From the IMG/VR virus record IMGVR_UViG_3300021964_007043: a stretch of DNA of 64,000 nt. One strand, 5' to 3'. Position 1 is the first letter of the stretch. Each line of letters begins with the position of its first letter. Under the pieces are notes generated by a model. The model worked only from the letters and a program-made list of their open reading frames with translations. It had not been told where the DNA came from and made no database searches. This DNA is from a virus. A program made the position numbers and the translations under genes. Below, piece by piece: positions 3-33,502 of this stretch.

Positions 3-854
3 TTTAGCAGTAGCAAGTGGTTTGCTGATGCAAAAAAACTAGCAGAAGAATATGATAATCCGGGTTACCTAGGAAATAAAGACAGAGCTATTATTCATGC
101 TGTAGAAGATACAGAAGGATTGCTTTCAAGATTAGATGAGTATCTGCCGCATATACAAGAAATATATTTTGCAGGCGGCGAACCTATGATAATGGAAGAA
201 CATTATCGTATACTTAAAAGATTATCTAAACTAAAACTTTACAATACTTTTATTAGATACAATACAAACTTTTTGCAGTTATATTACAAAGACAAAGATA
301 TTTTAGAGTTATGGAAAGACTTTAATAATGTACATTGTACAATAAGTGTTGATACTTACGGAGAGAGAGCTGAGATACTAAGGCATGATACTGTATGGTC
401 CACAATAGAAGATAATGTAAAACGTGTAAAAGCAGAAGCGCCGCACATTAGATTTAATATCGCACCAACTATACAGATACTTAATGTTTTAACTATTCCA
501 GAACTACACAAGCAATGGTGCCAAAAAGGATGGCTAAAGCCAAATGATTTATTTTTAAACATTTTACATGATCCTAGTTTTTATAATATAAAAGCATTAC
601 CGCAGCATCTAAAAGAACAAGCAAAACAAAAGTTTGAAGAACACATTGATTGGTTATCAAAAACCTATACAGATAACTTGTATAGTGTAAAAAATACAAT
701 AAATAACTCTATAAACTATATGATGAGTGAACAACTAGAAGAAGAAAGACTGTACGAAATGTGCAAACAAACTAAACAGTTAGATATAATAAGAAACCAA
801 AATACACCTGCTACATTTCCTGAACTTGAATACATATGGAGTAACTATGCTTAA
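3..854 (+). CDS. Radical SAM protein, probably N-terminal-twitch family; 5'-truncated by the window edge
   Basis: Frame is open from base 3 (FSSSKWFADAKK...). It has EIYFAGGEP, YNTN and ISVD..GE motifs shared with the complete paralogs at 6431-12471. The CxxxCxxC motif would lie upstream of the window. Confidence 0.8.
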   Translation, partial: FSSSKWFADAKKLAEEYDNPGYLGNKDRAIIHAVEDTEGLLSRLDEYLPHIQEIYFAGGEPMIMEEHYRILKRLSKLKLYNTFIRYNTNFLQLYYKDKDILELWKDFNNVHCTISVDTYGERAEILRHDTVWSTIEDNVKRVKAEAPHIRFNIAPTIQILNVLTIPELHKQWCQKGWLKPNDLFLNILHDPSFYNIKALPQHLKEQAKQKFEEHIDWLSKTYTDNLYSVKNTINNSINYMMSEQLEEERLYEMCKQTKQLDIIRNQNTPATFPELEYIWSNYA

Positions 855-1383
855 ACCGATTAAACTTGATTATGATTTTAGCATCTTCTTAGATGCAGAT
901 TATAGCGTACACGAAGGTAGCTGTATAGCACACCAAGTTCATGAGTTAACAGACATACATGAAGAATATGGTGGTTTTCCAGATAGCTATGAAAGTGAGA
1001 ATACGAAAATAAGACAGTTGTGGTGGAACGAATCACAAGTAGACTTTGAAAAGATAGGTCAGCAACTTGATATGCAAGTTGTAACAGTTAGTTCAATATT
1101 GCAACCTCCAGGAAATACTATTCCTATTCATAGAGATACTTTTTTTCAGATTAACAAACGATATCCTGATGATACTAGATTAAAAGTAAGAGCTAATATG
1201 TATCTTGAAGATTGGAAAGTAGGACATTTTCTACAGTATCAGGATGCAGATAAAGAATGGTATAACAGCACTCATTGGAAACAAGGTGAAGGTTGGATGT
1301 GGGATAGTAAACACTTGCATCTTAGTTCTAACGCAGGAATGAAACCAAAGTATACTTTACAAGTAAGTGGATTTTTAAATTAG
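847..1383 (+). CDS. Fe(II)/2OG-dependent or cupin-fold oxygenase (AspH-like)
   Basis: QPPGNTIPIHRD (HxD) and a distal H in KHLHLSSNAG. ATG at 847 overlaps the upstream stop. Paralog of 16211..16930. Confidence 0.7.
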   Translation: MLKPIKLDYDFSIFLDADYSVHEGSCIAHQVHELTDIHEEYGGFPDSYESENTKIRQLWWNESQVDFEKIGQQLDMQVVTVSSILQPPGNTIPIHRDTFFQINKRYPDDTRLKVRANMYLEDWKVGHFLQYQDADKEWYNSTHWKQGEGWMWDSKHLHLSSNAGMKPKYTLQVSGFLN

Positions 1384-2802
1384 TTTTTTGCCTCTTACTT
1401 TTTTAAGTTCTGTAATCCAAAATCTAGGTGCCCGATTTGCATAATATAGATATAACTCTTGATTGTAGTCAAGTGTATCTTGCATTTCTTCCCACATAGT
1501 ATCACACTCTTGTATAGACATATTGTCTATACGCCTAATAACACGCATGATTTTTTCAATATGTATTTTAACATCACCTTCTTCTGCAAAATCTTCGTTC
1601 CACCAACGATCGAAAGTTTTGAATCCTAGTCGATGTAACTCGTCATATAACCCGGGATTAGCACTTGTAATAAACGGACGTCTAGCAAGTATAGGTTTAC
1701 ATATTTTTTCTGTTATAAACAAATCGTTATGATATGGGCCTTCTCTTTCGTTATATGTTTCACAACTTATATCTATAAACGCTCTAGAATAATGTGTTGG
1801 ATTTGGCAACCAAAACCATTTTAAATGATGATAGTCGATATTTCCTTCTTGTATTTCTTTTGGAAATGTATTAATAGGAAGTTTATGGTATAACTCTATC
1901 ATATTTTCGATATCAGTTCTGTGATAGTGCGACCTTTTGAACAATCTTTGCTGATATGCTTGGTGATATTGCATTATTTCTTTTATTTCTACTTCAGGAT
2001 CAACCATATCAGTGGGTTTTGATATTTTCATCCACAAGTGTTCAGGTTGTACTATTTTTTGTAGTTTTGACAGGTAAGTATATCTAGCAGGACGAAATCT
2101 TCCTGAATAACACAAAAATCTTCCTTTTTTAAACAAGGGCTTTCTTTTAGATAATCTTATTATTTCGTTTATATGCTTTTTAGTCATTGTATAAGATACA
2201 AACTGCATCCAATGACTGCACGAAAGAAATACTAACCAATCTGGAATATTATATACTGAGTTTTCGTATATTGATTTTGTGTTTGCATGAGAATCTAAGA
2301 ACACAAATCTGTTTTCTAGTTTGAATTCTTTACGTTTTACTATTAAACTTGGTATTGTAACAAAGTCTCTGCTACTTACTGCTTTTGCTTCGTGAGCATC
2401 ATGAAAAACTATAGCACAATCTTTATGTTTCTGCAACCATTCTATTGTTTCGTTGGGCAAGTTTCCAAAAGGACAAAGGTTTTTGTAAGTAAAAACTTGG
2501 TCATCGTTTGCAACCAATCTAATAGGAAATATGTTTATATCTTTAGGATCATAGTTTCTAAAATCTTTGTTGATAAATCTTACTTCAGTTTGTGTATAAA
2601 AGTCTACCCAACTATGCCATTCAGGATCTGATCTAAAACTATATCTACCAATCTCGTCTTCGCTTTTGTTATCATCCATTTCTCGTATAGTCTGTAGCAC
2701 ACTCATAGTTTGGAGTTTTTTCCACGGGAAATAGTTTGACAAATGTTTGTCAATATGGGGATTAGGTATATCGGATACGTACCATTGAATAACTTTACTC
2801 AT
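1375..2802 (-). CDS. Putative GT-B glycosyltransferase-like protein (GT10/fucosyltransferase-like C-terminus)
   Basis: C-terminal ISCET...FITEKICKPILARRPF...G...L..LGFKTF..WWNE motif. Start placed at ATG 2802 (MSKVIQW), directly behind an ATAAATA box. Confidence 0.45.
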   Translation of the reverse strand: MSKVIQWYVSDIPNPHIDKHLSNYFPWKKLQTMSVLQTIREMDDNKSEDEIGRYSFRSDPEWHSWVDFYTQTEVRFINKDFRNYDPKDINIFPIRLVANDDQVFTYKNLCPFGNLPNETIEWLQKHKDCAIVFHDAHEAKAVSSRDFVTIPSLIVKRKEFKLENRFVFLDSHANTKSIYENSVYNIPDWLVFLSCSHWMQFVSYTMTKKHINEIIRLSKRKPLFKKGRFLCYSGRFRPARYTYLSKLQKIVQPEHLWMKISKPTDMVDPEVEIKEIMQYHQAYQQRLFKRSHYHRTDIENMIELYHKLPINTFPKEIQEGNIDYHHLKWFWLPNPTHYSRAFIDISCETYNEREGPYHNDLFITEKICKPILARRPFITSANPGLYDELHRLGFKTFDRWWNEDFAEEGDVKIHIEKIMRVIRRIDNMSIQECDTMWEEMQDTLDYNQELYLYYANRAPRFWITELKKVRGKKLI

Positions 2803-2809
2803 GCTTAGA

Positions 2810-2816: not shown

Positions 2817-2844
2817 GTGCGTATATAACCATGAATGTTTGCTA

Positions 2845-2873
2845 TTGACAAAACCACCAATAAGTAGTATAAT
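2845..2873 (+). promoter_or_regulatory. Sigma70 consensus promoter, probably leaderless transcript
   Basis: TTGACA (2845-2850), N17, TATAAT (2868-2873). ATG is at 2879 with no SD. Confidence 0.8.
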
Positions 2874-2878
2874 AAGTT

Positions 2879-3553
2879 ATGTTTGATATTGTCTTTATTT
2901 CATACCAAGAACCTAATGCTGACGAGAACTGGAACCGTCTTATTAAACGTTTCCCTACAGCAAAACGTATACACGGTGTAAAAGGTATACACCAAGCACA
3001 CATTGCAGGTGCTAAACAGTGCTGGACTAAAATGTTCTGGATTGTAGATGGTGATGCACATATAGTTGATGATTTTGATTTTAGTTTTAAGCCACACAAA
3101 TGGAACTTAGATACTGTTCATGTATGGCGTAGTCGTAATCCGATTAACGATATGGAATATGGTTACGGAGGTGTAAAACTATTTCCTACACAACTTACTA
3201 TTGACATGGATACTAGCAAGCCTGATATGACAACTAGCATTAGCGACAAGTTTTGTGCAATGCACGATGTAAGTAATATTACAGCATTTAATACTGCACC
3301 TTTTGAAACTTGGAAAAGTGCGTTTAGAGAATGTTGTAAACTGTCTAGCAAAATCATAGACAGACAAAAAGATAATGAAACACAAGAACGGTTACATACT
3401 TGGTGTACAGTTGGCGAAGATAGACCTTTCGGCGATTATGCTATTAAAGGAGCCAAAGCAGGCGCAGCATATGGTGCAAGAAATAAAGAAAATATAGACA
3501 AGCTAAGAGAAATAAACGATTTTGACTGGCTAATGGAGAAGTTTAATGAATAA
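2879..3553 (+). CDS. GT-A fold glycosyltransferase-like protein
   Basis: N-terminal FDIVFISY.EP, DxD motif (VDGDA), YGYGGVKLF. Confidence 0.55.
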   Translation: MFDIVFISYQEPNADENWNRLIKRFPTAKRIHGVKGIHQAHIAGAKQCWTKMFWIVDGDAHIVDDFDFSFKPHKWNLDTVHVWRSRNPINDMEYGYGGVKLFPTQLTIDMDTSKPDMTTSISDKFCAMHDVSNITAFNTAPFETWKSAFRECCKLSSKIIDRQKDNETQERLHTWCTVGEDRPFGDYAIKGAKAGAAYGARNKENIDKLREINDFDWLMEKFNE

Positions 3554-4397
3554 AGAAAATACACTAAACTGGGTTCGAGGACTGTCTTCATTTTTAGAGT
3601 TTGACAACGACTTAGAATCTAAAAAGTTTATCGATTTTTTAGAGAAGTCCATGTATTCCGAAAACAATATTATTGATACAACTAATCAAGCAGGCATGGT
3701 TGAGTTTATTAGTGTGCTTCGTAAGTTTGCTCCTAATCCTATATTCGATATATTCCACAAATATTATAGATCAGGTCAAGATCCAGCAGCATTACAAGAT
3801 GCATTCAGTAGAGGACAAGTATTAAGTAAAATATGGCTTTCGCAAGAGTTAGCTAAAATTGACCAAAAAGATTTTCATACTATTTTTATACTTGCCGGCT
3901 GGTTTGGTCAAACAGTAAAGTATCTTGATAAATCTGGTATATCATATAGTTGTATAAGAAACTTTGATATTGATCCAACTGCTTGTTGGGTTAGTGATAA
4001 GATTTTTAACATAGACAAGATTGAAGGGTTCACTGTAAAAAGTTCCGAAATGGACATCAATGATCTAACTACTCTTCATCAAAATGGATTGGAGTTTTCT
4101 TTAAAAAACTATACTTCCGGAAAAGTTATCGTAGAAAAAAGATTTCCAAGTTTGATTATTAATACTAGTGCAGAGCATTTTAAAGAAGATTGGTATAACA
4201 AGTTTGTAACTAGGACGACAGAAAGTGATCCATTATATATTATTCAGTCAAACAATCTTTTTACTATCAAAGAACATATAAACTGTGTACATAGCCTTGA
4301 TGAAATGTTAAAAAAGTTTCCAATGAGTAGACTATATTATTCCGGAGAAAAAGAACTATACGGATATAAAAGATTTATGTTAATAGGAAGACCATGA
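3546..4397 (+). CDS. Class I SAM-dependent methyltransferase-like protein
   Basis: Rossmann-type IFILAGWFG, acidic FDIDP, and IINTSAEH. Confidence 0.55.
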   Translation: MNKENTLNWVRGLSSFLEFDNDLESKKFIDFLEKSMYSENNIIDTTNQAGMVEFISVLRKFAPNPIFDIFHKYYRSGQDPAALQDAFSRGQVLSKIWLSQELAKIDQKDFHTIFILAGWFGQTVKYLDKSGISYSCIRNFDIDPTACWVSDKIFNIDKIEGFTVKSSEMDINDLTTLHQNGLEFSLKNYTSGKVIVEKRFPSLIINTSAEHFKEDWYNKFVTRTTESDPLYIIQSNNLFTIKEHINCVHSLDEMLKKFPMSRLYYSGEKELYGYKRFMLIGRP

Positions 4398-4621
4398 ACA
4401 TCGACGATCTAACTCTTAGAGAGCTTCAAAAAGAAAGTGCCAGAGCACTGAGTACAATGGAAGCAACAAATAATAACATTTATCAGTTTAATAAACTAGC
4501 ACACCATAACAGTCAAAACTGGTATAAGGCTGTTATAGAATGGTATGTAGAGCAGTATGGAGATTTGCCAAGTCGTATTGGACCTGCTAAAGATATAAAA
4601 CTAGTCTTTGACGAGGAATAG
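4394..4621 (+). CDS. Small hypothetical protein (75 aa)
   Basis: ATGA coupling to the upstream gene; in operon context. Confidence 0.7.
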   Translation: MNIDDLTLRELQKESARALSTMEATNNNIYQFNKLAHHNSQNWYKAVIEWYVEQYGDLPSRIGPAKDIKLVFDEE

Positions 4622-4625: not shown

Positions 4626-5360
4626 TTGAAAAACGTTTTAATACTCGGGTGCAGTCACTCTAGAGGAAGTTATAGTTTAAGTAATACTATACGAGATAAA
4701 GGTGAAGAATACACTGCCTTTAATCTTGGAGGATGGTGGGCACATTGTGACTATATTAAAGATATGAACAAACGCATATACGCTGGAGGAGGAGTAGGTT
4801 GGTTTTGGTATGCTGAAGTTATATTATCGATATTAGAATCTCAAACTTTAAAATACTATGACATGTGTATAATACAAGAAACTATTGAACCAAGATTTCA
4901 TATTTCTAATCAAACTGAATGCACCAAAGAAAAATATAAAGACTTTAATGCTGAGTTAATAGATTTTAACGTAAGTGTAAACTCTTTCTTTAGTAATCAA
5001 TTTCAAAATATGGATTATATAATAAAAAGTCAGTTTCCTAAAACACACATTAGTAAAGATTTTTATGTAGCTATATCTGGAGAATCAAATACATATAAAA
5101 CTGCAACTTATCTTTCTAAACTTTTTGTTTCTAATCTTATGCAAGAATATCAAATACCTACATATACATTTCAAATGGGAGACAAGGTAGGAACTAGCGA
5201 TTATTTTATAGATCTTGAACTTACAAATATGTACGAAAAGTCTACAATAAAAGAAAGAACATCGGATGCTCACGGCGCCCACTTAAATATACACGGAAAT
5301 AAAATATTAGGAAATAAAATAAGCAACGCACTGAGAAAAAAGCAAAATGTACGAATATAA
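4626..5360 (+). CDS. SGNH/GDSL hydrolase-like protein
   Basis: ILGCSHS block I and C-terminal DAHGAHLN (D..H-like). TTG start. Confidence 0.55.
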   Translation: MKNVLILGCSHSRGSYSLSNTIRDKGEEYTAFNLGGWWAHCDYIKDMNKRIYAGGGVGWFWYAEVILSILESQTLKYYDMCIIQETIEPRFHISNQTECTKEKYKDFNAELIDFNVSVNSFFSNQFQNMDYIIKSQFPKTHISKDFYVAISGESNTYKTATYLSKLFVSNLMQEYQIPTYTFQMGDKVGTSDYFIDLELTNMYEKSTIKERTSDAHGAHLNIHGNKILGNKISNALRKKQNVRI

Positions 5361-6423
5361 AAATATAAAAACAATTCATTTAGAAGTAACACAAAACTGT
5401 CAAGCCAGTTGTCCTATGTGTGATCGAAATATGAACGGCGAAGGCGTTAATCCGCATATTAATCTTGATGAGCTTACACTTGAAGATTGCAAACGTATTT
5501 TTGAACCTGATTTTATTGCTCAACTTAATACAATGTATATGTGCGGTAACTTAGGAGATCCTATTGTTGCACGAGATACATTAGAAATATTCCGTTACTT
5601 TAGAGAACATAACCCTAATATGTGGTTAAGCATGAATACAAATGGAGGAGCAAAAGATGAAGCGTGGTGGAGTGAACTGGCCAAAGTCTTTGGCAGGATG
5701 GGTGCTGTTATTTTCAGTGTGGACGGTCTTAGGGACACTAATCATATATACAGGCAGGGTGTTGTCTGGGACAATGTAGAACGCAACATGAAAACTTTTA
5801 TCAATGCCGGCGGTAGAGCCCGTTGGGACTTTTTAATATTTGAACATAATCAACACCAAGTTGAAGAAGCAGAAGCTCTTGCCAACGAGTGGGGTGTTGA
5901 AAAGTTTATGAAAAAGAAGACTGGAAGATTTATTGACACAAAATCAAACAAAAAAGAAAAGCATCAAGCCAAAGACCGTAAAGGCAAAGATACAGCAGAG
6001 CTTAAAAAGCCAGAAGAAAAATACCAGAATAAAGCTCTTACCAAGCAAGAAACAATACTCAAGAAATACGGCAGTATGGACGCATATTATGATGCAGCTC
6101 CTATCATTTGTAAAGTTAAAAAAGAAAACAGTTTGTTCATCACAGCAGAAGGACTAGCATTGCCTTGTTGCTGGACTGCTGGACGTATGTATAAATGGTG
6201 GAATGAAAATCCTTACCAAGAACAAATATGGAGATTCATTGATTTATCGGGTGGTAAAGAAAAACTTGATGCACGTAAAGGATTAAAAAATGTATTCGGT
6301 ACTGGAATTTTTAATCGAATAGAAAAAAGTTGGAATATAAATAGTTGTAGTTCAGGTAAACTAAAAGTATGTGCTATGAAGTGTGGTGCCGAGTTTGACC
6401 CCTTTGCAGAGCAGTTTAAATAA
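5347..6423 (+). CDS. Radical SAM protein with C-terminal Cys-containing (SPASM/twitch-like) region
   Basis: CQASCPMC, CGNLGDP, and C-terminal C...PCC...C...C. Confidence 0.85.
   Translation: MYEYKNIKTIHLEVTQNCQASCPMCDRNMNGEGVNPHINLDELTLEDCKRIFEPDFIAQLNTMYMCGNLGDPIVARDTLEIFRYFREHNPNMWLSMNTNGGAKDEAWWSELAKVFGRMGAVIFSVDGLRDTNHIYRQGVVWDNVERNMKTFINAGGRARWDFLIFEHNQHQVEEAEALANEWGVEKFMKKKTGRFIDTKSNKKEKHQAKDRKGKDTAELKKPEEKYQNKALTKQETILKKYGSMDAYYDAAPIICKVKKENSLFITAEGLALPCCWTAGRMYKWWNENPYQEQIWRFIDLSGGKEKLDARKGLKNVFGTGIFNRIEKSWNINSCSSGKLKVCAMKCGAEFDPFAEQFK
6417..6422 (+). promoter_or_regulatory. T4-like late promoter box TAAATA
   Basis: TAAATA overlapping the upstream stop, 8 nt before ATG 6431. Confidence 0.5.
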
Positions 6424-6430: not shown

Positions 6431-7834
6431 ATGACTAAGAATATATCCCCAACATTTTGTGCTCTACCTTGGATGCATTTAAGTAGTAGACCAGACGGTA
6501 AAATGCGTACCTGCTGTACGTCAAATGCAAGTTCAGTACAAGATCCAGATAGCAACAAAAAAATAGGTGGCGGCGAAGTCGGCATTGTAAAAAATGATGA
6601 CGGTATCCCCGCTAACTTTAACCATACAACATTAGAAGATGCATGGAATAGTTCATATATGCGTAATGTGCGTAAAATGATGTTGCGCGGCGAAAAACCT
6701 GCAAGTTGCTTAAAGTGCTATAAAGAAGAAGAAGCAGGACACCTTAGTAAAAGAAACTGGGAAACAGAATACTGGGGTCATAGATATGACTTACAGCAAC
6801 TAGTTGATGAAACTAAGGAAGATGGCAGTATTCCTCCTAAGATACGCTACATAGACCTTAGAATGGGTACAAAGTGCCAACTAGCATGTGTTATGTGTAG
6901 CCCGCACGATAGTTCAGGATGGATTAAAGAATGGCAAGACATCTATCCACAGATGCAAAATGAAAAACTTAAAAATACAAGTGCATGGGAAAATAAAGGA
7001 CGTAATCACGGCGCAAGTTATAACTGGCACAAAAATAATCCAAGATTTTGGAAGGAACTTATGGAACAAGTTCCACATATGTATCAGCTATATTTTGCTG
7101 GTGGAGAAAGTTTAATCATTGATGAACATTACGATTTACTAGAAGAATGTATTCGTCAAGGATACGCAAAGAACATTGAACTACGTTATAACTCAAATGC
7201 AGTCGAATGGAGAGATGATTTGTTTGACCTTTGGGCAGAGTTTAAGAGAGTACGGTTTCATTATAGTATAGATGCGTTTGGCGAACAAAATGATTATATT
7301 CGTTATCCTAGTAAATGGGATCATCAAGTTGAGCAAATGTGGAAGCTAGACGCCACAGGTGACAACGTCGAACTAACTTCAGCAACTACTATTATGGCAC
7401 TTAATGTTGCTTACATTCCTGAGTTTGTAAAATGGAAAACACAAGCAGGATTTAAAAAATGGAATAAATGGCCTTTAGGAGCAGGAGGCATTAACATGCA
7501 TTTTGCATATTGGCCTCCGCAACTTAACTTGAAAGTTTTACCACAAAATGTGAAGCAAAAGATTACAGAAAAATATGAAAAAGAGTTTTATCCTTGGATA
7601 GAAGAAAATTGGGATCAGTTTACCGGAGTAAAGGAAGCAGGAATCGACAAAGAAACATTCCTAACTGCTAACTATGGATTAAAAAGATTTAAAGGTATTA
7701 TTAACTTTATGAATGCTGAAGACTGGAGCGCAAGGCTTCCAGAAACTAAAGAATATTTAACCCTTGTAAATAAACAAAGAAACTGGGAAAATAAATTTTT
7801 AGAAGTATTTCCGATATTTGAGGACATTATGTAA
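6431..7834 (+). CDS. N-terminal twitch-domain radical SAM protein
   Basis: FCALPWMHL...RTCC, CLKC, DLRMGTKCQLACVMC, YFAGGE. Start at ATG 6431. Confidence 0.9.
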   Translation: MTKNISPTFCALPWMHLSSRPDGKMRTCCTSNASSVQDPDSNKKIGGGEVGIVKNDDGIPANFNHTTLEDAWNSSYMRNVRKMMLRGEKPASCLKCYKEEEAGHLSKRNWETEYWGHRYDLQQLVDETKEDGSIPPKIRYIDLRMGTKCQLACVMCSPHDSSGWIKEWQDIYPQMQNEKLKNTSAWENKGRNHGASYNWHKNNPRFWKELMEQVPHMYQLYFAGGESLIIDEHYDLLEECIRQGYAKNIELRYNSNAVEWRDDLFDLWAEFKRVRFHYSIDAFGEQNDYIRYPSKWDHQVEQMWKLDATGDNVELTSATTIMALNVAYIPEFVKWKTQAGFKKWNKWPLGAGGINMHFAYWPPQLNLKVLPQNVKQKITEKYEKEFYPWIEENWDQFTGVKEAGIDKETFLTANYGLKRFKGIINFMNAEDWSARLPETKEYLTLVNKQRNWENKFLEVFPIFEDIM

Positions 7835-8805
7835 TGGAAAAAATAAATCAGATTGATTATTTAGACAATCGATTAAAAAACCATCTTTTATTTGATATAA
7901 ATTTAGGAAATCTATGTGTTTGGGCTTGTAGCTATTGTCCTGCTGGTTCACATGACGGAACAATGCCTTGGATCCCAGCAGATGATTTAACCAAGTTTCT
8001 TAAAAAAGCAATGAGGTTTTATACTGAATCTCTAGGTAAAGATGTTTTTATTTTTAACTTTTTAGGAGGAGAAACATCTTTATATAAAGACTTTAGTACT
8101 ATATGTGCAGCAATAAAAGAAGAAGCTGAAATATTAAATGTTAATACACAAGTTGAGTTTATAACAAATGCATATAGAAAGATAGACTATTGGAAGAAAA
8201 ATGCTCCATATTTTGATGTGGTAAAAGTTACTCATCATGCTGAAAATGCTAAAGCAGAGCATAGTACCGAAGTTTGCGATACATTAATCGAACATGGTTG
8301 CCATGCTAATATATCTATTCCTATGATACCTGACTTATGGGATAAATGCATAAGTGATATTGAAATAATGAAACAAAGTCGGAATAACTTCCATATAGAA
8401 GCTAAAGTTTTGCTTAAAGATTTTGATACAGATCCTTATGACTATACTCCTGAGCAGTTAACTATATTTCAAAAACCTGTTAGAGCAGGAAGTGCTAATC
8501 CTAAAGATAGATATTATAGGATTTCGAGTATTAATAACGAAACTAAAAAAACTGCTCCTGGAACTATTATGTCAAACGGATTAAACTATTTTAAAGGTTT
8601 CGAATGTTGGGCTGGTGTTGATATTTTAAAAATTAATAATAATGGATCTTTAGCATTAGGGGGTAAATGTCCTGTAAAAACTAAAGGATTAACAGACAAA
8701 ACAATATACGACGAGGATATTAGTTTTTTGACTCAGCCGATAGTTTGTACGGTTGATAGATGTACATGTCTTCCTGATATCAATACAAGGAAGCGTCGGT
8801 TATGA
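7834..8805 (+). CDS. Radical SAM protein with C-terminal twitch-like Cys cluster
   Basis: CVWACSYC, FLGGE, C-terminal CWAG...CP...C..DRCTC. Confidence 0.85.
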   Translation: MEKINQIDYLDNRLKNHLLFDINLGNLCVWACSYCPAGSHDGTMPWIPADDLTKFLKKAMRFYTESLGKDVFIFNFLGGETSLYKDFSTICAAIKEEAEILNVNTQVEFITNAYRKIDYWKKNAPYFDVVKVTHHAENAKAEHSTEVCDTLIEHGCHANISIPMIPDLWDKCISDIEIMKQSRNNFHIEAKVLLKDFDTDPYDYTPEQLTIFQKPVRAGSANPKDRYYRISSINNETKKTAPGTIMSNGLNYFKGFECWAGVDILKINNNGSLALGGKCPVKTKGLTDKTIYDEDISFLTQPIVCTVDRCTCLPDINTRKRRL

Positions 8806-11301: not shown

Positions 11302-12471
11302 ATGGCTGACACATTTTGTATATTACCCTGGATGCATCTTGCTACAAATGCTGGAGGAACTCTTCGTGTTTGTTGTAATAGCACTCCTGGTAAAAACTTT
11401 ATTGCAAAATCAGATGGCAAACCTTATAAACTACAAAGAGATGACTTAGTAGAAGCATGGAACAGTGAAACATATAAAAAAATAAGAACACAAATGCTTA
11501 ACGGCGAGCGTCCTGAAATGTGTACACGGTGTTTTCGCGAGGAAGATGTAGGTATTAAAAGTTCTAGGCAAGCATGGAATGAAAAATGGAAAGAGGATAT
11601 TAAGTATACAGTAGATGCACCTTTTGACATTAAATATGTGGACTTACGTTTAGGTAACTTGTGTAATCTAAAATGTCGTATGTGCAATCCTTATTCGAGT
11701 AATCAATGGGTTAAAGAATGGCACCTAGTTGAAGAAAAGTTAAACAACGAAGAAGTAAAATGGTTGTCGAATATGGAATGGCCAGAACATCCAAAGACAT
11801 GGGAAAATCTTTTTAGCATTGCTGATACTGTTGAAGAAATCTATTTAACAGGCGGCGAGCCTACTATTATTAAAGAACAACATAAACTTCTAGACTATTT
11901 TATAGATAACGATTCTGCAAAAAATATAAAGTTAAAATACAATACAAATCTTACTAATATTCCTAGACACTTATTAGACAAATGGAAAAAGTTTAAATCT
12001 ATCCAACTAAACTGTAGTATAGATGCCATCGGCGAGTTAGATAGATATATACGATATCCAAGTGATTGGAAAACGATAGAGAAAAACTTTGAAATCATTA
12101 GAAGTTTAGATAATGCAAATATAGAAATACACTGTACAGTTCAGATGTATAATATATTAAGATTGCATGAGTTAATAGAATGGGCTAAACCATATAACCA
12201 TAGGATTTATTTTAATATTTTAAATCATCCTGAATATTTAAATATTAGATGTTTGCCTGATAGATTAAAAAAACAAGCAAAGGAAAAACTAAACTCATAT
12301 TTAGAAATTCCTAAAGTGCAAGGAATAATAGATTACATGTTTGCTGAAGATTGGTCTAGTAAGTTAAAAGATTTTGTGCATTACACTACTGAACTAGATA
12401 AAAGTAGATCTCAATCAATATTAAATATTATTCCAGAGTTTGAAGATACTATAAAAGGAGAATCAACATGA
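11302..12471 (+). CDS. N-terminal twitch-domain radical SAM protein
   Basis: FCILPWMHL...RVCC, CTRC, DLRLGNLCNLKCRMC, YLTGGEP. Confidence 0.9.
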   Translation: MADTFCILPWMHLATNAGGTLRVCCNSTPGKNFIAKSDGKPYKLQRDDLVEAWNSETYKKIRTQMLNGERPEMCTRCFREEDVGIKSSRQAWNEKWKEDIKYTVDAPFDIKYVDLRLGNLCNLKCRMCNPYSSNQWVKEWHLVEEKLNNEEVKWLSNMEWPEHPKTWENLFSIADTVEEIYLTGGEPTIIKEQHKLLDYFIDNDSAKNIKLKYNTNLTNIPRHLLDKWKKFKSIQLNCSIDAIGELDRYIRYPSDWKTIEKNFEIIRSLDNANIEIHCTVQMYNILRLHELIEWAKPYNHRIYFNILNHPEYLNIRCLPDRLKKQAKEKLNSYLEIPKVQGIIDYMFAEDWSSKLKDFVHYTTELDKSRSQSILNIIPEFEDTIKGEST

Positions 12472-15073: not shown

Positions 15074-15079
15074 TACAAT
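15051..15079 (+). promoter_or_regulatory. Sigma70-type promoter, probably leaderless
   Basis: TTGACA (15051-56), N17, TACAAT (15074-79). ATG at 15085. Confidence 0.7.
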
Positions 15080-18978: not shown

Positions 18979-21048
18979 ATGAGCGTAAATGTATTGATCT
19001 CCCAGCCAAACCTTTATGACTCAAAAGTGTTTATGCCTTTGGTATTCCTCTGCCTTAAAACATATACTGATCTACAAGATGATATTGAACCGGTAAACTG
19101 GTTAGATCCTTTATTCCGGAATACTGATGTAGATACTATGTTAAATGGAGTAGACATTGAGTCGATAGATGTGCTAGGACTAAGTTGTTATGATTGGAAC
19201 TGGAGTCTTAACTTACAAATAGCAAAAAGGGTAAAGGATGCTAACCCTGGATGTTTAGTTGTAGCTGGAGGACCTCATCCCGATTGGAAAGATCAAAGTA
19301 TATTTTTAAAGCATCCTCAAATAGATGCTATTGTTTATAATGACGGCGAAAAACCGTTTGCAGATGTAATAAGATGTGTACAACAAGGAAAGTCATTAGA
19401 TACTGTAAATAATTTAATACTGCCTCATACAAAAACTCCTGCGAGTTCTTTATTTAAAGATTTTGAAGTTAGTCCTTGGCTACAAAATAAAGAATGGATC
19501 TTAAAGTTTAAAGAAAAATACATAGACAATGGCCTTAACAAACAGTTTACATTATTATGGGAAACTGATAGGGGATGTCCTTTTAAATGTAGTTTTTGTG
19601 ATTGGGGGAGTGCTACTAACAGTAAAGTAAGAAGATTTCCAGATGATAGAATAGCACAAGAAATAGATTTTTTTACAAACGATCTTAACGTCGATGTGTT
19701 GTATCACGTCGGAGCAAATCTAGGAATACTTCCTAGAGATTTAGATTTTGTTAGACATATATGTGAAAAGAAAAAAGAAACAGGGTATCCAAAAAGTTTT
19801 CAGTATAGTACAAGTAAAAATACACCCGAACGTACAGTTGAAATAGCAAAGTTACTATATGACGCAAAACTTTTAAAGAAGCATGTAGTTAGTTTACAGC
19901 ATACAGTACAAGATGTTTTAGATTGTATTGATCGTTATAATATCCCAGTTAAAAGACAGATACCGATGATACAAGAACTAAACAAAAATAAAATGCCTTG
20001 TATTAGTCAAATGATAATGGGAATGCCTGGCGATAGATATGAACTATGGATTAAAGCTCTTACAGATACTTTAGAATGGGGAATACATTATGAATGTAGG
20101 ATATATGATTTTCAGTTGTTACCTAACTCTCCAGCAGCACAACCTGATTATATGGAAAAATGGAATATAGGAACTAGAACCAGATACCATTTTATAAATG
20201 GATATCATAAAATGCTTGAACAATCGCATGCATTAGATCCCCATTCGACAGAGTTTATAGTTAGCACAAGTACATATACATTAGATGACTGGCTGGAAAT
20301 GAAAGTCTTTGGAAAAATTTTTATGGCTTTACATGGAGGAAGCATTTCGAAATGGGCAAGTATGTTTTGTAGAAATACCCTTGGAGTTTCTTACTACGAT
20401 TTTTATAAAGATATTTATGAAAACTTTTTTAAAAATAAAAAATACAAGTGTGCCTATTCTATTTTTGAAGAAGGATATTTACATTTTAAAAACTTTCTAC
20501 ACGATGACAGTGCAACAGATGAAATAAAAATACCTGCATTAAAGAATGGAAGATATTATCAACTAGAAGAATATGTTTTATGGAATTGTTTATACAACGA
20601 GGAATATAACTTGAATCAAGATTTTTGGAATGAGTTTGAAACATATATTTTAGAAACATATGAAGATCCGTTGTTAAAAGATTTAATAAACTTTAACAAA
20701 AATATGTTGCTTACATTAGACTATAACCATAGAAAAGGAAAAGAAATACTTTGCACTCACGATTGGTTTGAGTATTTAGAATATTGTACATGGAACTGTG
20801 CAGATAATACTGAAGAAGATTTTAATATTGAAGAAACACTAATACCAAAACCAAAAGAGTTTGATAGTCCTAAAGTCTGGCTTACAAAAGATTGTAAACT
20901 AGGTGCATTTCCAATGGGCCCAAATCAGGACACTACATGGTCAAATAAAGAAGGCGAAGAAAAAATAACAATGTTTGTAAACAGCATATTGGCACCAACA
21001 TATATGAGAGGAACAAGAACAGTGTTTAACAGGGGAAGCTATGTTTAA
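18979..21048 (+). CDS. Cobalamin-binding (class B) radical SAM protein
   Basis: DVLGLSCYDWN, AGGPH, ETDRGCPFKCSFCDWG. Confidence 0.9.
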   Translation: MSVNVLISQPNLYDSKVFMPLVFLCLKTYTDLQDDIEPVNWLDPLFRNTDVDTMLNGVDIESIDVLGLSCYDWNWSLNLQIAKRVKDANPGCLVVAGGPHPDWKDQSIFLKHPQIDAIVYNDGEKPFADVIRCVQQGKSLDTVNNLILPHTKTPASSLFKDFEVSPWLQNKEWILKFKEKYIDNGLNKQFTLLWETDRGCPFKCSFCDWGSATNSKVRRFPDDRIAQEIDFFTNDLNVDVLYHVGANLGILPRDLDFVRHICEKKKETGYPKSFQYSTSKNTPERTVEIAKLLYDAKLLKKHVVSLQHTVQDVLDCIDRYNIPVKRQIPMIQELNKNKMPCISQMIMGMPGDRYELWIKALTDTLEWGIHYECRIYDFQLLPNSPAAQPDYMEKWNIGTRTRYHFINGYHKMLEQSHALDPHSTEFIVSTSTYTLDDWLEMKVFGKIFMALHGGSISKWASMFCRNTLGVSYYDFYKDIYENFFKNKKYKCAYSIFEEGYLHFKNFLHDDSATDEIKIPALKNGRYYQLEEYVLWNCLYNEEYNLNQDFWNEFETYILETYEDPLLKDLINFNKNMLLTLDYNHRKGKEILCTHDWFEYLEYCTWNCADNTEEDFNIEETLIPKPKEFDSPKVWLTKDCKLGAFPMGPNQDTTWSNKEGEEKITMFVNSILAPTYMRGTRTVFNRGSYV

Positions 21049-25948: not shown

Positions 25949-25956
25949 TATTTATA
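25949..25956 (-). promoter_or_regulatory. T4 late promoter consensus TATAAATA
   Basis: Exact TATAAATA overlapping the upstream stop, 8 nt before ATG 25940. Confidence 0.65.
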
Positions 25957-26569: not shown

Positions 26570-26952
26570 TCAAATCTTCCATCTGTAGGTTTGCCGTTTT
26601 CAAATCTCCAGTTATGGTTATTTGACATTTTTCTTAGTTTGCCTTGATTAAACCAACAGCTTAAAAACGTTGCTAGACTTTCTTGATCCCATCTAACAGT
26701 ATAAGGTTTCGGGCTCCATGCCCTGTAAATAATATCATCCATGATAATATTTTCGCAGTCTTTTAGTTCTTTTACAAAACACCCAAAGAAAACTACTTTA
26801 TAGTCTCCTTTATATTCTTTTGCTTCCTTAGCAGTTAGTACAATACAATCTATATTGTGTTGATAAACACTATTTAAAAATGATTGTTTTGCGCTGTTAC
26901 TTGCTACTACTACTAAGTTCTTAATGCTACACAGTTGGAATGCCAAGTCCAC
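26545..26952 (-). CDS. Hypothetical protein (start uncertain)
   Basis: Fills the operon gap between the PP-loop gene and the cupin gene. Only GTG/TTG starts are available. Confidence 0.55.
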   Translation of the reverse strand: MDLAFQLCSIKNLVVVASNSAKQSFLNSVYQHNIDCIVLTAKEAKEYKGDYKVVFFGCFVKELKDCENIIMDDIIYRAWSPKPYTVRWDQESLATFLSCWFNQGKLRKMSNNHNWRFENGKPTDGRFEWLKELMH

Positions 26953-27913
26953 TTTTTGGATACCTCCATGGAATGTCTGTTAAGTCTTCGTACATTTCTC
27001 TGTACAAGTTTTTCTTTCCTTTGTAGTGGCTGGGCATATTTGTGCAAGCCTCTATAAAGTTATTTTCTGCATAAGGATGCACCCATTTTAGATCATCTTG
27101 TCCATAGTTAAATAATCTATATGCACCTTCATCTTGTAATCTACTAAACATAACTCTGTTTAAAATGTCTGGGTGTCTGTCCCATTGTGCAAATCTTTTT
27201 TTAAAGTGTTCTACACATTCTAAATAAATCTTATTTTCACTTAATGGTTTAACACTGTTTATTCGTCTGTAACTTCCGCATACATTTACATGCCAGTAAG
27301 ATAATGCTACTGGGTCGTACCCCATCATAGCAGTATATTGTAAAGACTGATTAACTTGCATTTCGCCTGTGCCTATTTCACCTGTAAATATAGTGTGGTC
27401 TTCTAGACCTAGTTCTTTTATTGCAAGTACTTTTGCTGTATATGGATTTTCAATCCAATACGGAAACTCTACTTTTGGTATAGTGTCTATTTTTACATAT
27501 TCAACATCAAGTTTCATCTGATCTGCAATTTGTTTTACTATATTACTTTCAGTTGTTGTAGATATATCACTATATAAACTTACAGGTATAAAAGGAACAT
27601 TATTTTTTATAAATGCATGTGCAAGTGCTGTACTATCTTTTCCTCCTGATAGAAATATAACGTTTTTATCAGTTGCGTATTTTTTAATGTTGTCTTCGAG
27701 TATTGCACGTAAAAAACTTGGGGCTATATCATATACTTTTTCTTTGGGTAATATTTTGTCTGAACTTTTTCTTTTAAGACCTGTTAAAGGATGCCGATTG
27801 CTTACAGTCCAGCCGCCTAGAAACTTTCTTTCTTCGTAGAAGTCTTGATTTATCTTATTAGATTCACCAACTTCAAACTCGCAATAAAAATAGTCAATAT
27901 TATTTAGGTTCAT
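26927..27913 (-). CDS. Asparagine-synthetase-like PP-loop ATPase (synthetase domain only)
   Basis: FLSGGKDS PP-loop, FTGE, WVHPY, KK.LY. No recognisable Ntn glutaminase domain. Confidence 0.7.
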   Translation of the reverse strand: MNLNNIDYFYCEFEVGESNKINQDFYEERKFLGGWTVSNRHPLTGLKRKSSDKILPKEKVYDIAPSFLRAILEDNIKKYATDKNVIFLSGGKDSTALAHAFIKNNVPFIPVSLYSDISTTTESNIVKQIADQMKLDVEYVKIDTIPKVEFPYWIENPYTAKVLAIKELGLEDHTIFTGEIGTGEMQVNQSLQYTAMMGYDPVALSYWHVNVCGSYRRINSVKPLSENKIYLECVEHFKKRFAQWDRHPDILNRVMFSRLQDEGAYRLFNYGQDDLKWVHPYAENNFIEACTNMPSHYKGKKNLYREMYEDLTDIPWRYPKSGLGIPTV

Positions 27914-28971
27914 AATTTGAAATCTTTAATGTCTAATACCTTTACAAAATCTTCAATCAGTATACGATATTTTTCTTGGAACTTAGATTGGAAATAAGGT
28001 TGCCAAAATCCCTCTTGTAGATGTGTTACATCATGTTGGACACGATAACATAAACGTTGTTTGGTATCTCCTAATCTTCGATGTAGTGTAATACTGTTAT
28101 CAAAAAACAAAAAGTCTCCTTCATTCTGGTACCAATGATCGTAAACATATTTTTCAACAAAAAGATTTTTATTGATTTCTGCAAACACTTTGTCGCTATC
28201 TTCTTTACTCATACCCTTAATGCTATATACAGTGTTTACACTATAATGCAATCCTTTAATACCACCTGGACTTTGTATTACTAAAGGTATTTCAATATCA
28301 TCTACAGGACACTGACTTGCTTTGCTTATTCTGTCCTGTTCTTCAATATATCCTGGATTAATGGCACCTTTAAGATATCTATGATGTATAATCATGTCGT
28401 CTAGCTCAGATCTAAAACTTTCACTTACGTTTTCATAGTAATCTACAGTTTGAACAAATCCTGTACTTGTTCCTTTAACACCCTCTTTAGCAAAAAGTGC
28501 AATGCCGGGTGTAAAAGCTAATGTTCCTGCTTCGTTACTGTGCCATAATAAATCACCTTCTGCAAACATACCAGTAGGATTTCCGATTTCGTCTTTTTTA
28601 CCGCTCACACGCATCATACTTCCTGATCGTGTAGGCTCTAGAACACGATCAATCGCTGCTAACAAATAATAATCATCTTCGCTAATATTAGGATCTTTTT
28701 CTCTTACTTTTTTCCATAGTTCATCGTAGTTTAAGTTATAGCGTTTAGCCATATCATATCTAACAATATCTCTATTGCCGCCAAACTTTCTAACCCATTT
28801 TTGTTGATCTTGATAATCTAAGTTAGTATTACGTATAATAACAACTAAGTTTTTTATATAAAGATCACCAATCTCCATCCATTCTTCATCTGTAATATGA
28901 TTAAAATCTACACCGTCTACAAATACTCCATAACTTCCTAATCCTGGTATTTTACTTACTTTCATATGCAT
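27910..28971 (-). CDS. TauD/TfdA-family dioxygenase
   Basis: LLWHSNE, TGFV, YDHWYQNEGDFLFFDNSITLHRR. Confidence 0.85.
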   Translation of the reverse strand: MHMKVSKIPGLGSYGVFVDGVDFNHITDEEWMEIGDLYIKNLVVIIRNTNLDYQDQQKWVRKFGGNRDIVRYDMAKRYNLNYDELWKKVREKDPNISEDDYYLLAAIDRVLEPTRSGSMMRVSGKKDEIGNPTGMFAEGDLLWHSNEAGTLAFTPGIALFAKEGVKGTSTGFVQTVDYYENVSESFRSELDDMIIHHRYLKGAINPGYIEEQDRISKASQCPVDDIEIPLVIQSPGGIKGLHYSVNTVYSIKGMSKEDSDKVFAEINKNLFVEKYVYDHWYQNEGDFLFFDNSITLHRRLGDTKQRLCYRVQHDVTHLQEGFWQPYFQSKFQEKYRILIEDFVKVLDIKDFKL

Positions 28972-29444
28972 TCTTCCTTGTGATCTAAATCTTTATAAAC
29001 ATAACAGTTAGGCCCGAACTCCATTCCTTCGTCAAAAAACTCACTAGTTTTTTTAAATCCTACCTTTTCGTATGCCGGCAACGCTTCTTTTCTAGGTATA
29101 CTCCAAATAGCTTTGCATTTTTCTTTTATTGCCTGACCGTGAAGTTCGCAGAACAAAACTCCGCTTACTCCTAGTTTTCTATATCGAGGATCTACCCAGA
29201 TGCCTCTACTCCTGTACAAATCGTCTGTTGTTCTATGACCGCTATTTACACCTACTATTTCTCCGACTACATTATATACTGCAAAAAATGTAGGAGAATA
29301 TTTTTTGTATATTTCCATATCAAATCCACCTTGATACATCATACTACTCATTGGTTTGATTTCACTGGTCCTATTAGGCCATAACTTTTCCTGCCAAAAA
29401 GGCAGTATAGTTTCAAAATCTACAACTCCGCTACGACCTTTCAT
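28962..29444 (-). CDS. GNAT-family acetyltransferase
   Basis: RGIWVDPRYRKLGVS (motif A), A..AYEKVGF (motif B). Start ATG 29444 overlaps the upstream TGA. Confidence 0.85.
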   Translation of the reverse strand: MKGRSGVVDFETILPFWQEKLWPNRTSEIKPMSSMMYQGGFDMEIYKKYSPTFFAVYNVVGEIVGVNSGHRTTDDLYRSRGIWVDPRYRKLGVSGVLFCELHGQAIKEKCKAIWSIPRKEALPAYEKVGFKKTSEFFDEGMEFGPNCYVYKDLDHKEECI

Positions 29445-30097
29445 TTTGCCTCCAGGTGCTTTATTGTACACTTATAGTTATTCTCGGTTAACGGTATGTT
29501 TAATACAAGTTGAACTGAATCGTCTACAAATGAAAACACACTATGTTCTTTTCTTGTGTTTATAAAGTAAGGTCTTCCAGGTTCTAAAGGAATAACACGA
29601 TCTTCGTATATAAACTTAAACTGGCCTTTATTGCAGTTATGACACATTGTAAGTATACGAAAACACGTTGCATTAAGTATTTTTCCGTCTCGATGAGGCG
29701 GGAAAAAACCGCCCTTATTTAGGCGTATAAAGTGTGAACGTCCAAGAGTATCAAATATATCTAAAAGCGGCTGTATGACGCTTATATTGCTTGCAACAGG
29801 TGTTTTTACGTTGATATTAACTTCGTTTATGTTTGTATTATTCTGTTTGTTATACTCGAACAAGCTATCTAAATCTGGAATGCCGCTAAGATTACCATCT
29901 AAACTTGTAACACTTAGTCCTTGTCTATTGTTAGGTTTTCTTGGGTTATATTGCTTCCAATCTTCAGAAAACTGGTTTAGTTCTTCTTTAAGTTTATTAA
30001 CATTAAGACAAAAGTCTAGAGGAACAATGTCCCCTAGACTTGCTAAATGCAATAACAGATTTGAATCTGTATTAGTCAATAGTTTTACCTTCGACAT
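29441..30097 (-). CDS. AspH-like Fe(II)/2OG oxygenase
   Basis: GRSHFIRLNKGGFFPPHRD and YFINTRKEHSVFS. Start placed at ATG 30097. Confidence 0.75.
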   Translation of the reverse strand: MSKVKLLTNTDSNLLLHLASLGDIVPLDFCLNVNKLKEELNQFSEDWKQYNPRKPNNRQGLSVTSLDGNLSGIPDLDSLFEYNKQNNTNINEVNINVKTPVASNISVIQPLLDIFDTLGRSHFIRLNKGGFFPPHRDGKILNATCFRILTMCHNCNKGQFKFIYEDRVIPLEPGRPYFINTRKEHSVFSFVDDSVQLVLNIPLTENNYKCTIKHLEAK

Positions 30098-31097: not shown

Positions 31098-31114
31098 GTG
31101 TTTTTTTCTCCTTT

Positions 31115-32536: not shown

Positions 32537-32542
32537 ATTACT

Positions 32543-32571
32543 ATTATACTATAAAACTGAGGAAGTGTCAA
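32543..32571 (-). promoter_or_regulatory. Sigma70 consensus promoter of the tctA operon, probably leaderless
   Basis: TTGACA (32571-66), N17, TATAAT (32548-43). ATG at 32536. Confidence 0.8.
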
Positions 32572-33502
32572 ATATTTTTGTGTAATTAACAAATCCACAA
32601 AATCCATTCTTAACTAAACTAAACAACTCTCGAGGATAATGTTTATACATATTTTCCTCCATTTTATAATAAATTTCTAAATAAAAATCATCTGATGGAT
32701 GAAAATGATCTGTTTTTGATTTGAATATAAGTTCAGGCCATTCGCTGTTTTTTAAAGCAATAGTATTACACACTCCTTTGTTTTGTTTACCATAACTTAG
32801 CAAAGGGTGTGTTGCTTGACTTTTTATTAAAGGTAGGGTGCTATTAAAAAAAGTCCACATACCTTGTTTTCCTGTTTCTTCACCGTATAACCACCAAATC
32901 ATTTCTGTAGGAGGACACGGTATAACTACTTCTTTGTCCCAGTCTTCACCTATACAGTTTTCTATAGTTTTACGATATATCCAGCCATCTTTTTCAAGTT
33001 CGCCTAGTCCTCCTACAATAAACTGCTCATTTGGAATCTTATCAAACATACCCATGCTAATAAGGAACCCTCTACTCATATTACCTAGTTTTACACTGTA
33101 ATATTTCATTCGTTCTAAGCATTCGTCGTAGTCGGCTTCGAACCCAATCCAATCATAACCAAGATCATATGCTAGTTTCATACTTTTTTCTTTATAACTA
33201 GAATCAGCCCAAGGATAGTCTTCGTAATATATAGTAGCCTTTTTTCCGTTAGCATGAGCAGAACGTGCTACTATTTCACTATCACTTCCGCTTACAGGTA
33301 TTGCTAGATGTAGATCTGGAAGAAGAGATGCAGCACTGATGCATTCTTCTCTAAAGGATTTAGATTCAATAGAAATATTATTTAATATTTGATAATCAAA
33401 CTTTTCTAGTTTTTCTGATTTATCTAAAAAACTCTTAAAGTTTGCATATGGAACATTATTAACAGACCACCATATGTGTTCTGGAAGATTTACATATTTC
33501 AT
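32549..33502 (-). CDS. Adenine-nucleotide alpha-hydrolase/PP-loop-like protein (degenerate)
   Basis: LAIPVSGSDSEIVA resembles SGGxDS; IVGGLGE. Confidence 0.4.
   Translation of the reverse strand: MKYVNLPEHIWWSVNNVPYANFKSFLDKSEKLEKFDYQILNNISIESKSFREECISAASLLPDLHLAIPVSGSDSEIVARSAHANGKKATIYYEDYPWADSSYKEKSMKLAYDLGYDWIGFEADYDECLERMKYYSVKLGNMSRGFLISMGMFDKIPNEQFIVGGLGELEKDGWIYRKTIENCIGEDWDKEVVIPCPPTEMIWWLYGEETGKQGMWTFFNSTLPLIKSQATHPLLSYGKQNKGVCNTIALKNSEWPELIFKSKTDHFHPSDDFYLEIYYKMEENMYKHYPRELFSLVKNGFCGFVNYTKIFDTSSVL

Follow-up and report, generated by a model that had tools for sequence, protein, structure and literature searches.

What does a phage gain from 33.5 kb of enzymes for unusual chemistry? 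The question is raised by a 64,000-nucleotide stretch of viral DNA (the window; IMG/VR virus record IMGVR_UViG_3300021964_007043), in which positions 3..33502 hold 33 genes at 99.4% coding density, dominated by radical S-adenosylmethionine (SAM) enzymes and iron/2-oxoglutarate-dependent (Fe/2OG) oxygenases. We show that this island is a fixed, clade-wide locus of aquatic jumbo phages, made of a small glycosyltransferase (GT) core and a shuffled accessory pool. Our best explanation, to which we give about an even chance, is that the island builds a variable glycan decoration of the virion and edits it after sugar transfer. More tentatively, and on balance doubtfully, a widespread group of aquatic jumbo phages may rewrite transferred sugars in place, using interchangeable enzyme sets of the radical SAM, B12-radical SAM, and non-canonical Fe/2OG classes.

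The near-contiguous enzyme block proposed in an earlier, sequence-only reading is real. Identical contigs are present in other JGI, ENA, and Logan assemblies and runs, which shows that the block is not an artefact. Its G+C content is 0.329, against 0.384 in the remainder of the window. The best-matching sequencing runs are estuary and marine metagenomes, and the family B polymerase (polB) is 50% identical to that of the Sinorhizobium phage Phosso and 44% identical to those of Atu_ph07 and 121Q-like phages. On this sequence evidence, the window is part of an uncultured, estuarine jumbo phage. No tRNA genes were found in the 64-kb window. As had been proposed, the island ends at a tail-fibre-like gene, which has an Mtd_N domain. 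Its supposed start at position 3 is incorrect: contig L257, from an identical strain, places the true left end 5,081 nt upstream of position 1, for a full span of ~39 kb. Upstream of the window, L257 carries a LamG-domain fibre gene, a 115-aa gene, two GT-A-type genes, a 195-aa gene, a 313-aa paralog of gene 2879 (genes are named by their first position in the window; see the table), and a pair of twitch radical SAM genes, of which the latter is the first open reading frame (ORF) of the window. The sequence-only reading had listed glycosyltransferases; two lie in the window (2879 and 1375) and three more upstream of it, and the whole island totals 13 radical SAM and five GT-like genes.

Island homologs co-occur at one fixed locus across related phage genomes and are not scattered. 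One flank has tail/baseplate-like genes and a very large protein, the other Mtd fibre, vWA, and MoxR genes. The MoxR gene has at least 588 relatives in viral contigs. Wherever a relative extends far enough, MoxR, vWA, four small genes, and Mtd fibre come in the same order, and the content beyond the fibre differs from phage to phage. At the opposite end, tail genes are followed by a small gene, two GT-A genes, a spacer gene, and two paralogs of 2879. This GT core is present at every locus whose tail end is seen, with radical SAM genes placed behind it in all of them. Complete islands range from ~4 kb with GTs and zero radical SAM genes (L165, L166, and L181) to >30 kb; radical SAM copies run from 0 to ~15, with 9 to 15 matches on each of five long contigs. 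The part of the island that does not vary is thus the GT block. A second tier (the methyltransferase, the 75-aa gene, and radical SAM genes 5347, 6431, and 15085) is frequent and 72-92% identical in close relatives. Most accessory genes of the window have no relative above 45% identity among >340 loci. The idea of a phage-encoded assembly line therefore survives as a functional tailoring locus, but not as a single line, given the small core, the shuffled pool, and two promoter types.

Ralstonia phage RsoM2USA is the only isolate with a 2879 homolog. It carries the minimal core (ORFs 354-347) after ORFs 361, 359, and 356, which its authors assigned to virion bands (PMC8504454). Separately, the cultured Vibrio phages K566 and K567 (L176, OZ196521.1:160000-171000) carry at least four twitch-type radical SAM genes and no 2879 homolog; their cluster is a second testable isolate. 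By eye, the accessory pool of L265-L344 includes short-chain dehydrogenase/reductase (SDR), QueC-like, desaturase, flavin halogenase, SET-domain, sulfotransferase-like, AMP-ligase, and MTA/SAH nucleosidase-like genes.

Two contigs resemble cassette swaps. L257 matches the window exactly as far as 7410, and L258 as far as 5594. Within conserved radical SAM genes, each then passes into foreign, AATT-rich DNA that carries different accessory genes, in a gene set resembling that of G005 (L257:14300-20675, L258:13000-13666). Each hybrid radical SAM protein occurs on one contig only, the L257 sample also has a 28.3-kb window-type contig that, judged by its length, would end near 7.1 kb, and a contig-based read layout contains no such joint. 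We do not accept a strain-level swap as shown, since these are single assemblies that may be chimeric.

The island is maintained by purifying selection. Core GTs, core and accessory radical SAM enzymes, B12 enzymes, oxygenases, SGNH proteins, and the methyltransferase have median pairwise dN/dS values of 0.07-0.16, the same as replication genes; most of the measurements were made in relatives, because the accessory genes of the window have no close variants. Catalytic cysteine loss was looked for, and the CxxxCxxC motif is kept in 514/514 full-length radical SAM family members (genes broken by stops left out). The scarcity of close relatives for accessory genes and their scrambled orientation and order could suggest neutral or decaying cargo at a recombination hotspot. 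However, this reading is largely refuted, and has next to no chance of being correct, given dN/dS of ~0.1 in every class, the intact cysteine motifs, the coding density, the genes' own promoters, and the purging of AATT sites from every gene.

The enzyme classes named in the sequence-only reading are present, with graded support. CxxxCxxC is visible in 11 of the 12 radical SAM genes in the window, the first gene being cut by the window start. Five island proteins pass NF033640 (N_Twi_rSAM) at 414, 337, 358, 411, and 375 bits, the last for the first gene as completed from L257, against a curated cut-off of 170 bits. SPASM matches lie at the N-terminus of these proteins, the twitch domain preceding the radical SAM core. 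Here NF033640 occurs as diverged paralog arrays next to GTs; we know of no function for the family. Four radical SAM proteins are B12-type (16927, 18979, 22380, and 23839). Twitch and B12 radical SAM enzymes are known to act on sugars, as in BtrN, NeoN, and GenK. Nine Fe/2OG domains were counted: four by Pfam (the C-terminus of 12468, 16211, 21041, and 27910), two (21685 and 29441) by a family profile matching Cpz10 at 8e-30, whose nearest relatives are Cpz10 and proline hydroxylases, and three (847, 25392, and 25952) by an HxD...H motif alone. The TauD-like family, comprising 27910-28965 and >30 homologs (e.g., L089:13778-14872 and L313:15445-16485), nearly always shows His-x-Asn...His where the iron triad would be His-x-Asp/Glu...His, apparently an unusual conserved metal site.

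Support for the remaining classes is uneven. The GNAT assignment is firm, and the methyltransferase is identified at motif level plus an Atlas lead. Two PP-loop ligases are present, with weak, asparagine-synthase-like matches. For the transporter, TctA is firm (2e-92) but TctC is weak, and the 17-bp gap between them leaves no room for TctB. Two SGNH proteins (4626 and 14375) were missing from the earlier list. PHROGs gave no match for ten unassigned island proteins.

Structural models support the GT assignments. The model of gene 2879 (pLDDT 94) has a GT-A fold, with a Foldseek E of 2e-5 to WrtF, a VIA score of Z 11.6 (root-mean-square deviation [rmsd] 2.7, 135 aligned), and invariant D57 and D59 (DxD); the PBCV-1 capsid GT (A064R) is among its fold matches. 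By its model, gene 2879 is a putative glycosyltransferase of GT-A fold, a fold that nucleotidyltransferases have too. Gene 1375, on a weaker model (pLDDT 62), compares with an alpha-1,3-fucosyltransferase of GT-B fold (VIA Z 11.0, rmsd 4.1, 250 aligned), and nearly all its top fold matches are GT-B. An upstream core GT has a profile match (E 0.0035) to glycogenin, a GT8 enzyme that glycosylates protein. For the GT2879, 1375, and methyltransferase families, sequence-profile searches gave no relative in the PDB.

Promoter motifs suggest that the island is probably a patchwork of early core units and late accessory units; regulation is read here at motif level throughout. Six strand blocks and internal promoters indicate that the island is transcribed as several units and is not a single operon. 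TAAATA is found within 40 nt of 70/83 virion-gene heads, versus 2 of ~90 heads of genes such as exonuclease, QueE, and FolE. Across six islands, TAARTA stands before 27/53 island heads versus 21/147 coupled genes (p 4e-7), as well as 13/15 virion-gene heads. At 16 island heads it stands 4-10 nt from the ATG, a leaderless geometry unseen at virion genes. The window has six such late-motif heads (2802, 6431, 18939, 18979, 25940, and 33502). Three others (2879, 15085, and tctA) have TTGACA-N17-TA(T/C)AAT immediately upstream of the ATG; the 15085 orthologs of G001, G004, and G005 likewise have a sigma70-like promoter in front. By eye, PanD-like (aspartate decarboxylase-like) genes in related islands also have sigma70-like promoters (G001:78796-79149 and G004:24226-24600).

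A hypermodified glycan or residue on the virion, one of the products first proposed, is the best-supported option. The virion-glycan reading draws on a location that all long relatives keep, between tail genes and the MoxR-vWA-Mtd block, and on the islands with GTs but no radical SAM genes, the GT-A and GT-B folds, the glycogenin match, the RsoM2USA core after virion-band ORFs, the late motif at gene heads, the lack of membrane glycosylation machinery, the low dN/dS, the GT-like neighbours of bacterial 2879 homologs, and the precedents of Che8 and Megavirinae. By hydropathy, multi-pass TctA is the sole island protein with membrane helices, and no membrane-embedded glycosylation machinery was found among island proteins. 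The core GTs would use host nucleotide sugars in the cytoplasm to place a short glycan on virion proteins, probably on Ser/Thr-rich fibre or tail proteins. Neighbouring fibre/tail proteins are 20-25% Ser/Thr, which is common in fibres and weak evidence. The radical SAM trio and the methyltransferase would make a first, standard edit. Once the sugars are in place, accessory enzymes could go on to epimerise, oxidise, C-methylate, hydroxylate, and acylate the glycan or an amino-acyl group that it carries, giving each lineage a different decoration. TctA/TctC may import a carboxylate co-substrate, the weakest step. The likely benefit would be altered adsorption or particle protection.

Several observations weigh against a virion glycan. 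No glycan or modified virion has been observed. None of the 33 island genes in the window is a nucleotide-sugar synthesis gene; epimerase, PMM-like, and cytidylyltransferase-like genes sit outside the island, at 53.5-56 kb. Editing after transfer would explain the missing synthases. Radical SAM family profiles gave generic matches only, none convincing to a sugar-acting enzyme, and Cpz10, the closest solved structure to two of the island's oxygenases, is an enzyme that works on a nucleoside-antibiotic intermediate. The six-gene core is also chromosomal in Bdellovibrionota, so its chemistry is not virion-specific. Finally, the host-type sigma70 promoters at the core GT operon, the most conserved radical SAM gene, and tctA suggest early expression.

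Early expression would also suit an island that remodels a host surface glycan (the lipopolysaccharide core or O-chain, or a glycoprotein) during a long infection, for competitor exclusion or changed grazing. Such a role was proposed for pelagimyophage islands (PMC7029224), and would fit the perfect sigma70 promoters before core genes, the GT8-like core GT, the core's presence in bacterial chromosomes, the 270-min latent period of RsoM2USA, and the desaturase-like membrane proteins seen by eye in related islands. However, this island has no flippase, polymerase, undecaprenyl-linked transferase, or membrane enzyme, about half of the heads carry the late motif, and even distant lineages keep the locus next to virion genes. 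We consider host-surface remodeling unlikely.

Restriction-site patterns argue against the earlier suggestion that the island further decorates modified phage DNA. AATT has an observed/expected ratio (O/E) of 0.18 in the window (71 sites vs ~404 expected), is purged in every island gene, and stands at 0.13 in core genes vs 0.20 in the island; among other phages, only L281 and L138 are depleted. This avoidance points to a host with an AATT-cutting restriction enzyme. Furthermore, 14/99 island-bearing loci, some of them near-duplicates, purge AGCT, CTAG, GTAC, or ACGT to O/E <=0.1. Sites with all four bases are thus purged, which is hard to reconcile with a protective base modification by the island. 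Controls behaved as expected: the lowest O/E is 0.38 in T4 and 0.34 in phiW-14, in SPO1 only sites lacking T are purged, and T7, which is unmodified, purges GATC.

Candidate base-modification genes do lie nearby. Some 10-19 kb away, at 43520-52796, the window encodes QueE, FolE, a QueD-like protein, a 516-aa TGT-like protein (51246), a GT-B gene (48172-49230), PRT, and HIT, with no QueC seen. This neighbourhood resembles the DpdA system for 7-deazaguanine in phage DNA (Cui et al. 10.1101/2023.04.13.536721). Because relatives with FolE/QueE (L048 and L049) still purge AGCT, these que/TGT genes may act on tRNA just as plausibly as on DNA. Homologs of the TGT-like gene occur in PA5oct, Paride, Vibrio 2.275.O, and Phosso, all without the GT core, and RsoM2USA has the core without the TGT-like gene. 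The island therefore dissociates from the 7-deazaguanine genes. The T4 beta-glucosyltransferase is among the GT-B fold matches of 1375, and systems pairing TET/5mYOX oxygenases with GTs share the combination of Fe/2OG enzymes and GTs with the island, but the island's oxygenases belong to other families and restriction sites are still purged. A Tet_JBP search gave zero matches in the island genes and five related records, although the positive control also gave none. AATT, the only site that the window phage purges, has neither G nor C; some G modification by other genes would fit this pattern. Hypermodification of phage DNA by the island, for instance as a decorated 7-deazaguanine or hydroxymethyl base, is very improbable.

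The Cpz10-like and proline-hydroxylase-like oxygenases could instead belong to a biosynthetic cluster whose product is a small, diffusible molecule, for instance a nucleoside- or aminosugar-antibiotic-like compound, a signal, or a counter-defence product. Weak viperin and BlsE similarity, the PP-loop ligases, GNAT, and tripartite tricarboxylate transporter (TTT), and, by eye, halogenase-, AMP-ligase-, SDR-, and PanD-like genes in related islands would be at home there. Cpz10, a nucleoside-antibiotic tailoring enzyme of solved structure (PMC9814697), and BlsE belong to the same enzyme classes as the island's, but antibiotic tailoring enzymes serve fixed pathways to one diffusible product, whereas the island is shuffled. 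Gene content this unstable ill suits one pathway. Moreover, the island has no scaffold-forming enzyme (nonribosomal peptide synthetase, polyketide synthase, or nucleosidase) and no exporter, and its best score to prokaryotic viperin (NF038283) is 41.5 bits against a cut-off of 180. A small-molecule product is quite unlikely.

Direct tailoring of virion-protein residues also has only a slight chance. Here the radical SAM and Fe/2OG enzymes would act as in ribosomally synthesized and post-translationally modified peptides (RiPPs), by epimerisation, C-methylation, or Asp/Asn/Pro hydroxylation, with the GTs separate or downstream. SPASM/twitch domains are common in peptide maturases (the best Twi match is SkfB, 1e-8), Asp_Arg_Hydrox-type domains are present, SET-like genes appear by eye in related islands, and the late motifs would suit virion targets. 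However, radical SAM genes lie behind the GT core wherever that end is seen, and no precursor peptide or RiPP recognition element gene was found (ORFs <60 aa were not surveyed), which also tells against the RiPP product earlier entertained. The sole small conserved ORF (75 aa) is uniform along its length and is missing from Bdellovibrionota loci that keep the radical SAM trio, making it an unlikely peptide substrate of the trio.

The phage core is a conserved chemistry unit that extends beyond virions. Two 2879-type GTs, the methyltransferase, and three conserved radical SAM genes occur together, often adjacent, on Bdellovibrionota chromosomal contigs, at 30-67% identity to the phage versions. 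This bacterial cluster comprises the same six families as the phage core but lacks the 75-aa gene. The 15085 marker is present in 15/301 sampled Bdellovibrionota genomes; its family tree is not rootable, and we therefore claim no direction of transfer. Bacterial homologs of 2879 often adjoin other GT-like genes (by eye), and form small GT-like operons in Photorhabdus (L214, L217, and L221), Streptomyces and Kitasatospora (L234-L256), and Pedobacter and Dyadobacter (L228 and L232). No known product was identified for the Streptomyces and Photorhabdus operons.

Among known viral systems, the island works like the host recognition cluster (HRC) of pelagimyophages and cyanomyophages and the glycogene clusters of Megavirinae, but is a member of neither. 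The HRC, which is placed between VrlC and the neck gene gp14, is likewise a large, non-syntenic island in the structural region with fibres and GTs, and its radical SAM cassettes differ between close genomes (Zaragoza-Solas et al. 2020, PMC7029224). That study favoured host O-chain modification, the chemistry being untested there. However, the HRC belongs to a T4-like SAR11/cyanobacterial lineage, whereas the island phage has its nearest polB in Phosso, Atu_ph07, and 121Q-like phages and carries a fixed GT-A core, of families without Pfam matches, in an island dominated by radical SAM and Fe/2OG enzymes. Megavirinae have clade-specific clusters of 6-33 glycogenes (PMC10117803) that make nucleotide sugars and then transfer them, a synthesis that the island lacks. 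The different lineage and the missing nucleotide-sugar pathways place the island outside both systems. Virus-encoded soluble GTs and clade-specific clustering are shared with Megavirinae, PBCV-1, and mycobacteriophage Che8, whose capsid glycans are described in PMC11256854 (citing Freeman 2023). Glycans have been shown for these three systems, whereas the island is read from its genes. Che8 has only a few GTs, and the island adds 12 radical SAM and nine Fe/2OG enzymes in the window. Literature searches found no paper on the island's chemistry. A moraphage paper describing four core GTs could not be linked to this lineage.

Several features lie apart from the island's main architecture. Genes at 38838-39704 and 50472-51074 resemble inserted nucleases without family matches, and the former is absent before MoxR in G005. 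Two further SGNH-like genes (45167-45982 and 59190-59855) lie in the core region outside the island. L086 (G002:111900-123100) holds nine CxxxCxxC proteins in a second, unrelated array, which comes behind a very large protein and two short ORFs that are paralogs (124 and 127 aa); from its sequence, a peptide-maturase cluster is possible.

Table. Genes and promoter motifs of the island and its right boundary, in window coordinates.
Feature	Position	Strand	Remarks
Radical SAM, N-terminal-twitch, 3' part	3..854	+	whole protein 425 aa, full motif; NF033640 score from L257 copy
Fe/2OG-type cupin, 178 aa	847..1383	+	HRD...H, motif level only
GT-B glycosyltransferase-like	1375..2802	-	nearest folds alpha-1,3-fucosyltransferases; likely start 2802 behind TAAATA
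sigma70 consensus promoter TTGACA-N17-TATAAT	2845..2873	+	5 nt before ATG of 2879; leaderless geometry; motif only
Core GT-A-fold glycosyltransferase (by model)	2879..3553	+	invariant DxD
Core class I methyltransferase-like	3546..4397	+	motif level plus Atlas lead
Conserved 75-aa protein	4394..4621	+	conserved end to end; absent from Bdellovibrionota loci
SGNH/GDSL-like acyl transferase or esterase	4626..5360	+	
Conserved radical SAM, C-terminal Cys cluster	5347..6423	+	member of trio common to Bdellovibrionota
Conserved N-terminal-twitch radical SAM, trio member	6431..7834	+	NF033640 414 bits; TAAATA 8 nt upstream
Accessory radical SAM	7834..8805	+	motif
Three accessory N-terminal-twitch radical SAM paralogs	8802-10088, 10081-11301, 11302-12471	+	
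635-aa fusion: unassigned N-terminal part plus Asp_Arg_Hydrox-type Fe/2OG domain	12468..14375	+	
SGNH/GDSL-like protein	14375..15073	+	
sigma70 promoter TTGACA-N17-TACAAT	15051..15079	+	5 nt before ATG of 15085; motif only
Most conserved radical SAM	15085..16200	+	85-92% in relatives, 62-67% in Bdellovibrionota
Asp_Arg_Hydrox-type Fe/2OG oxygenase	16211..16930	+	Pfam
B12-binding radical SAM, weak KedN5-like C-methyltransferase match	16927..18939	-	TAAATA 5 nt upstream
B12-binding radical SAM	18979..21048	+	TAAATA 5 nt upstream
Fe/2OG oxygenase, 2OG-FeII_Oxy_3	21041-21697	+	Pfam
Fe/2OG oxygenase, Cpz10-like family	21685-22389	+	family profile
Two B12-type radical SAM enzymes	22380-23849, 23839-25404	+	
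Two cupin/Fe-2OG-type proteins	25392-25940, 25952-26569	-	HID...H motif only; TATAAATA 8 nt before first
Orphan, 135 aa	26545..26952	-	
PP-loop (SGGKDS) adenylating enzyme	26927..27913	-	weak QueC/NAD synthase/Asn synthase matches
TauD-family oxygenase	27910..28965	-	His-x-Asn...His metal motif
GNAT acetyltransferase	28962..29444	-	
Fe/2OG oxygenase, Cpz10/proline-hydroxylase-like family	29441..30097	-	family profile
TctC-like binding protein	30072-31097	-	weak (BugD 5.6e-4)
TctA	31115-32536	-	firm
sigma70 consensus promoter TTGACA-N17-TATAAT	32543..32571	-	6 nt before tctA ATG; motif only
PP-loop, asparagine-synthase-like protein	32549..33502	-	TAAATA 9 nt upstream
Mtd_N fibre gene	33522..34742	-	right boundary of island

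In hundreds of abundant aquatic phages, purifying selection maintains as many as ~15 oxygen-sensitive iron-sulfur enzymes. Whatever its target, the locus is a large source of radical SAM (NF033640) and Fe/2OG chemistry, and RsoM2USA, cultured and with the minimal core, makes the question directly testable. If sugars are indeed rewritten in place, antigenic variation would proceed by radical chemistry and not by nucleotide-sugar synthesis, through a core pathway common to predatory Bdellovibrionota. If the product is a virion glycan, phage glycosylation would be far commoner and chemically richer than its few known examples, and may shape host range and survival in water.

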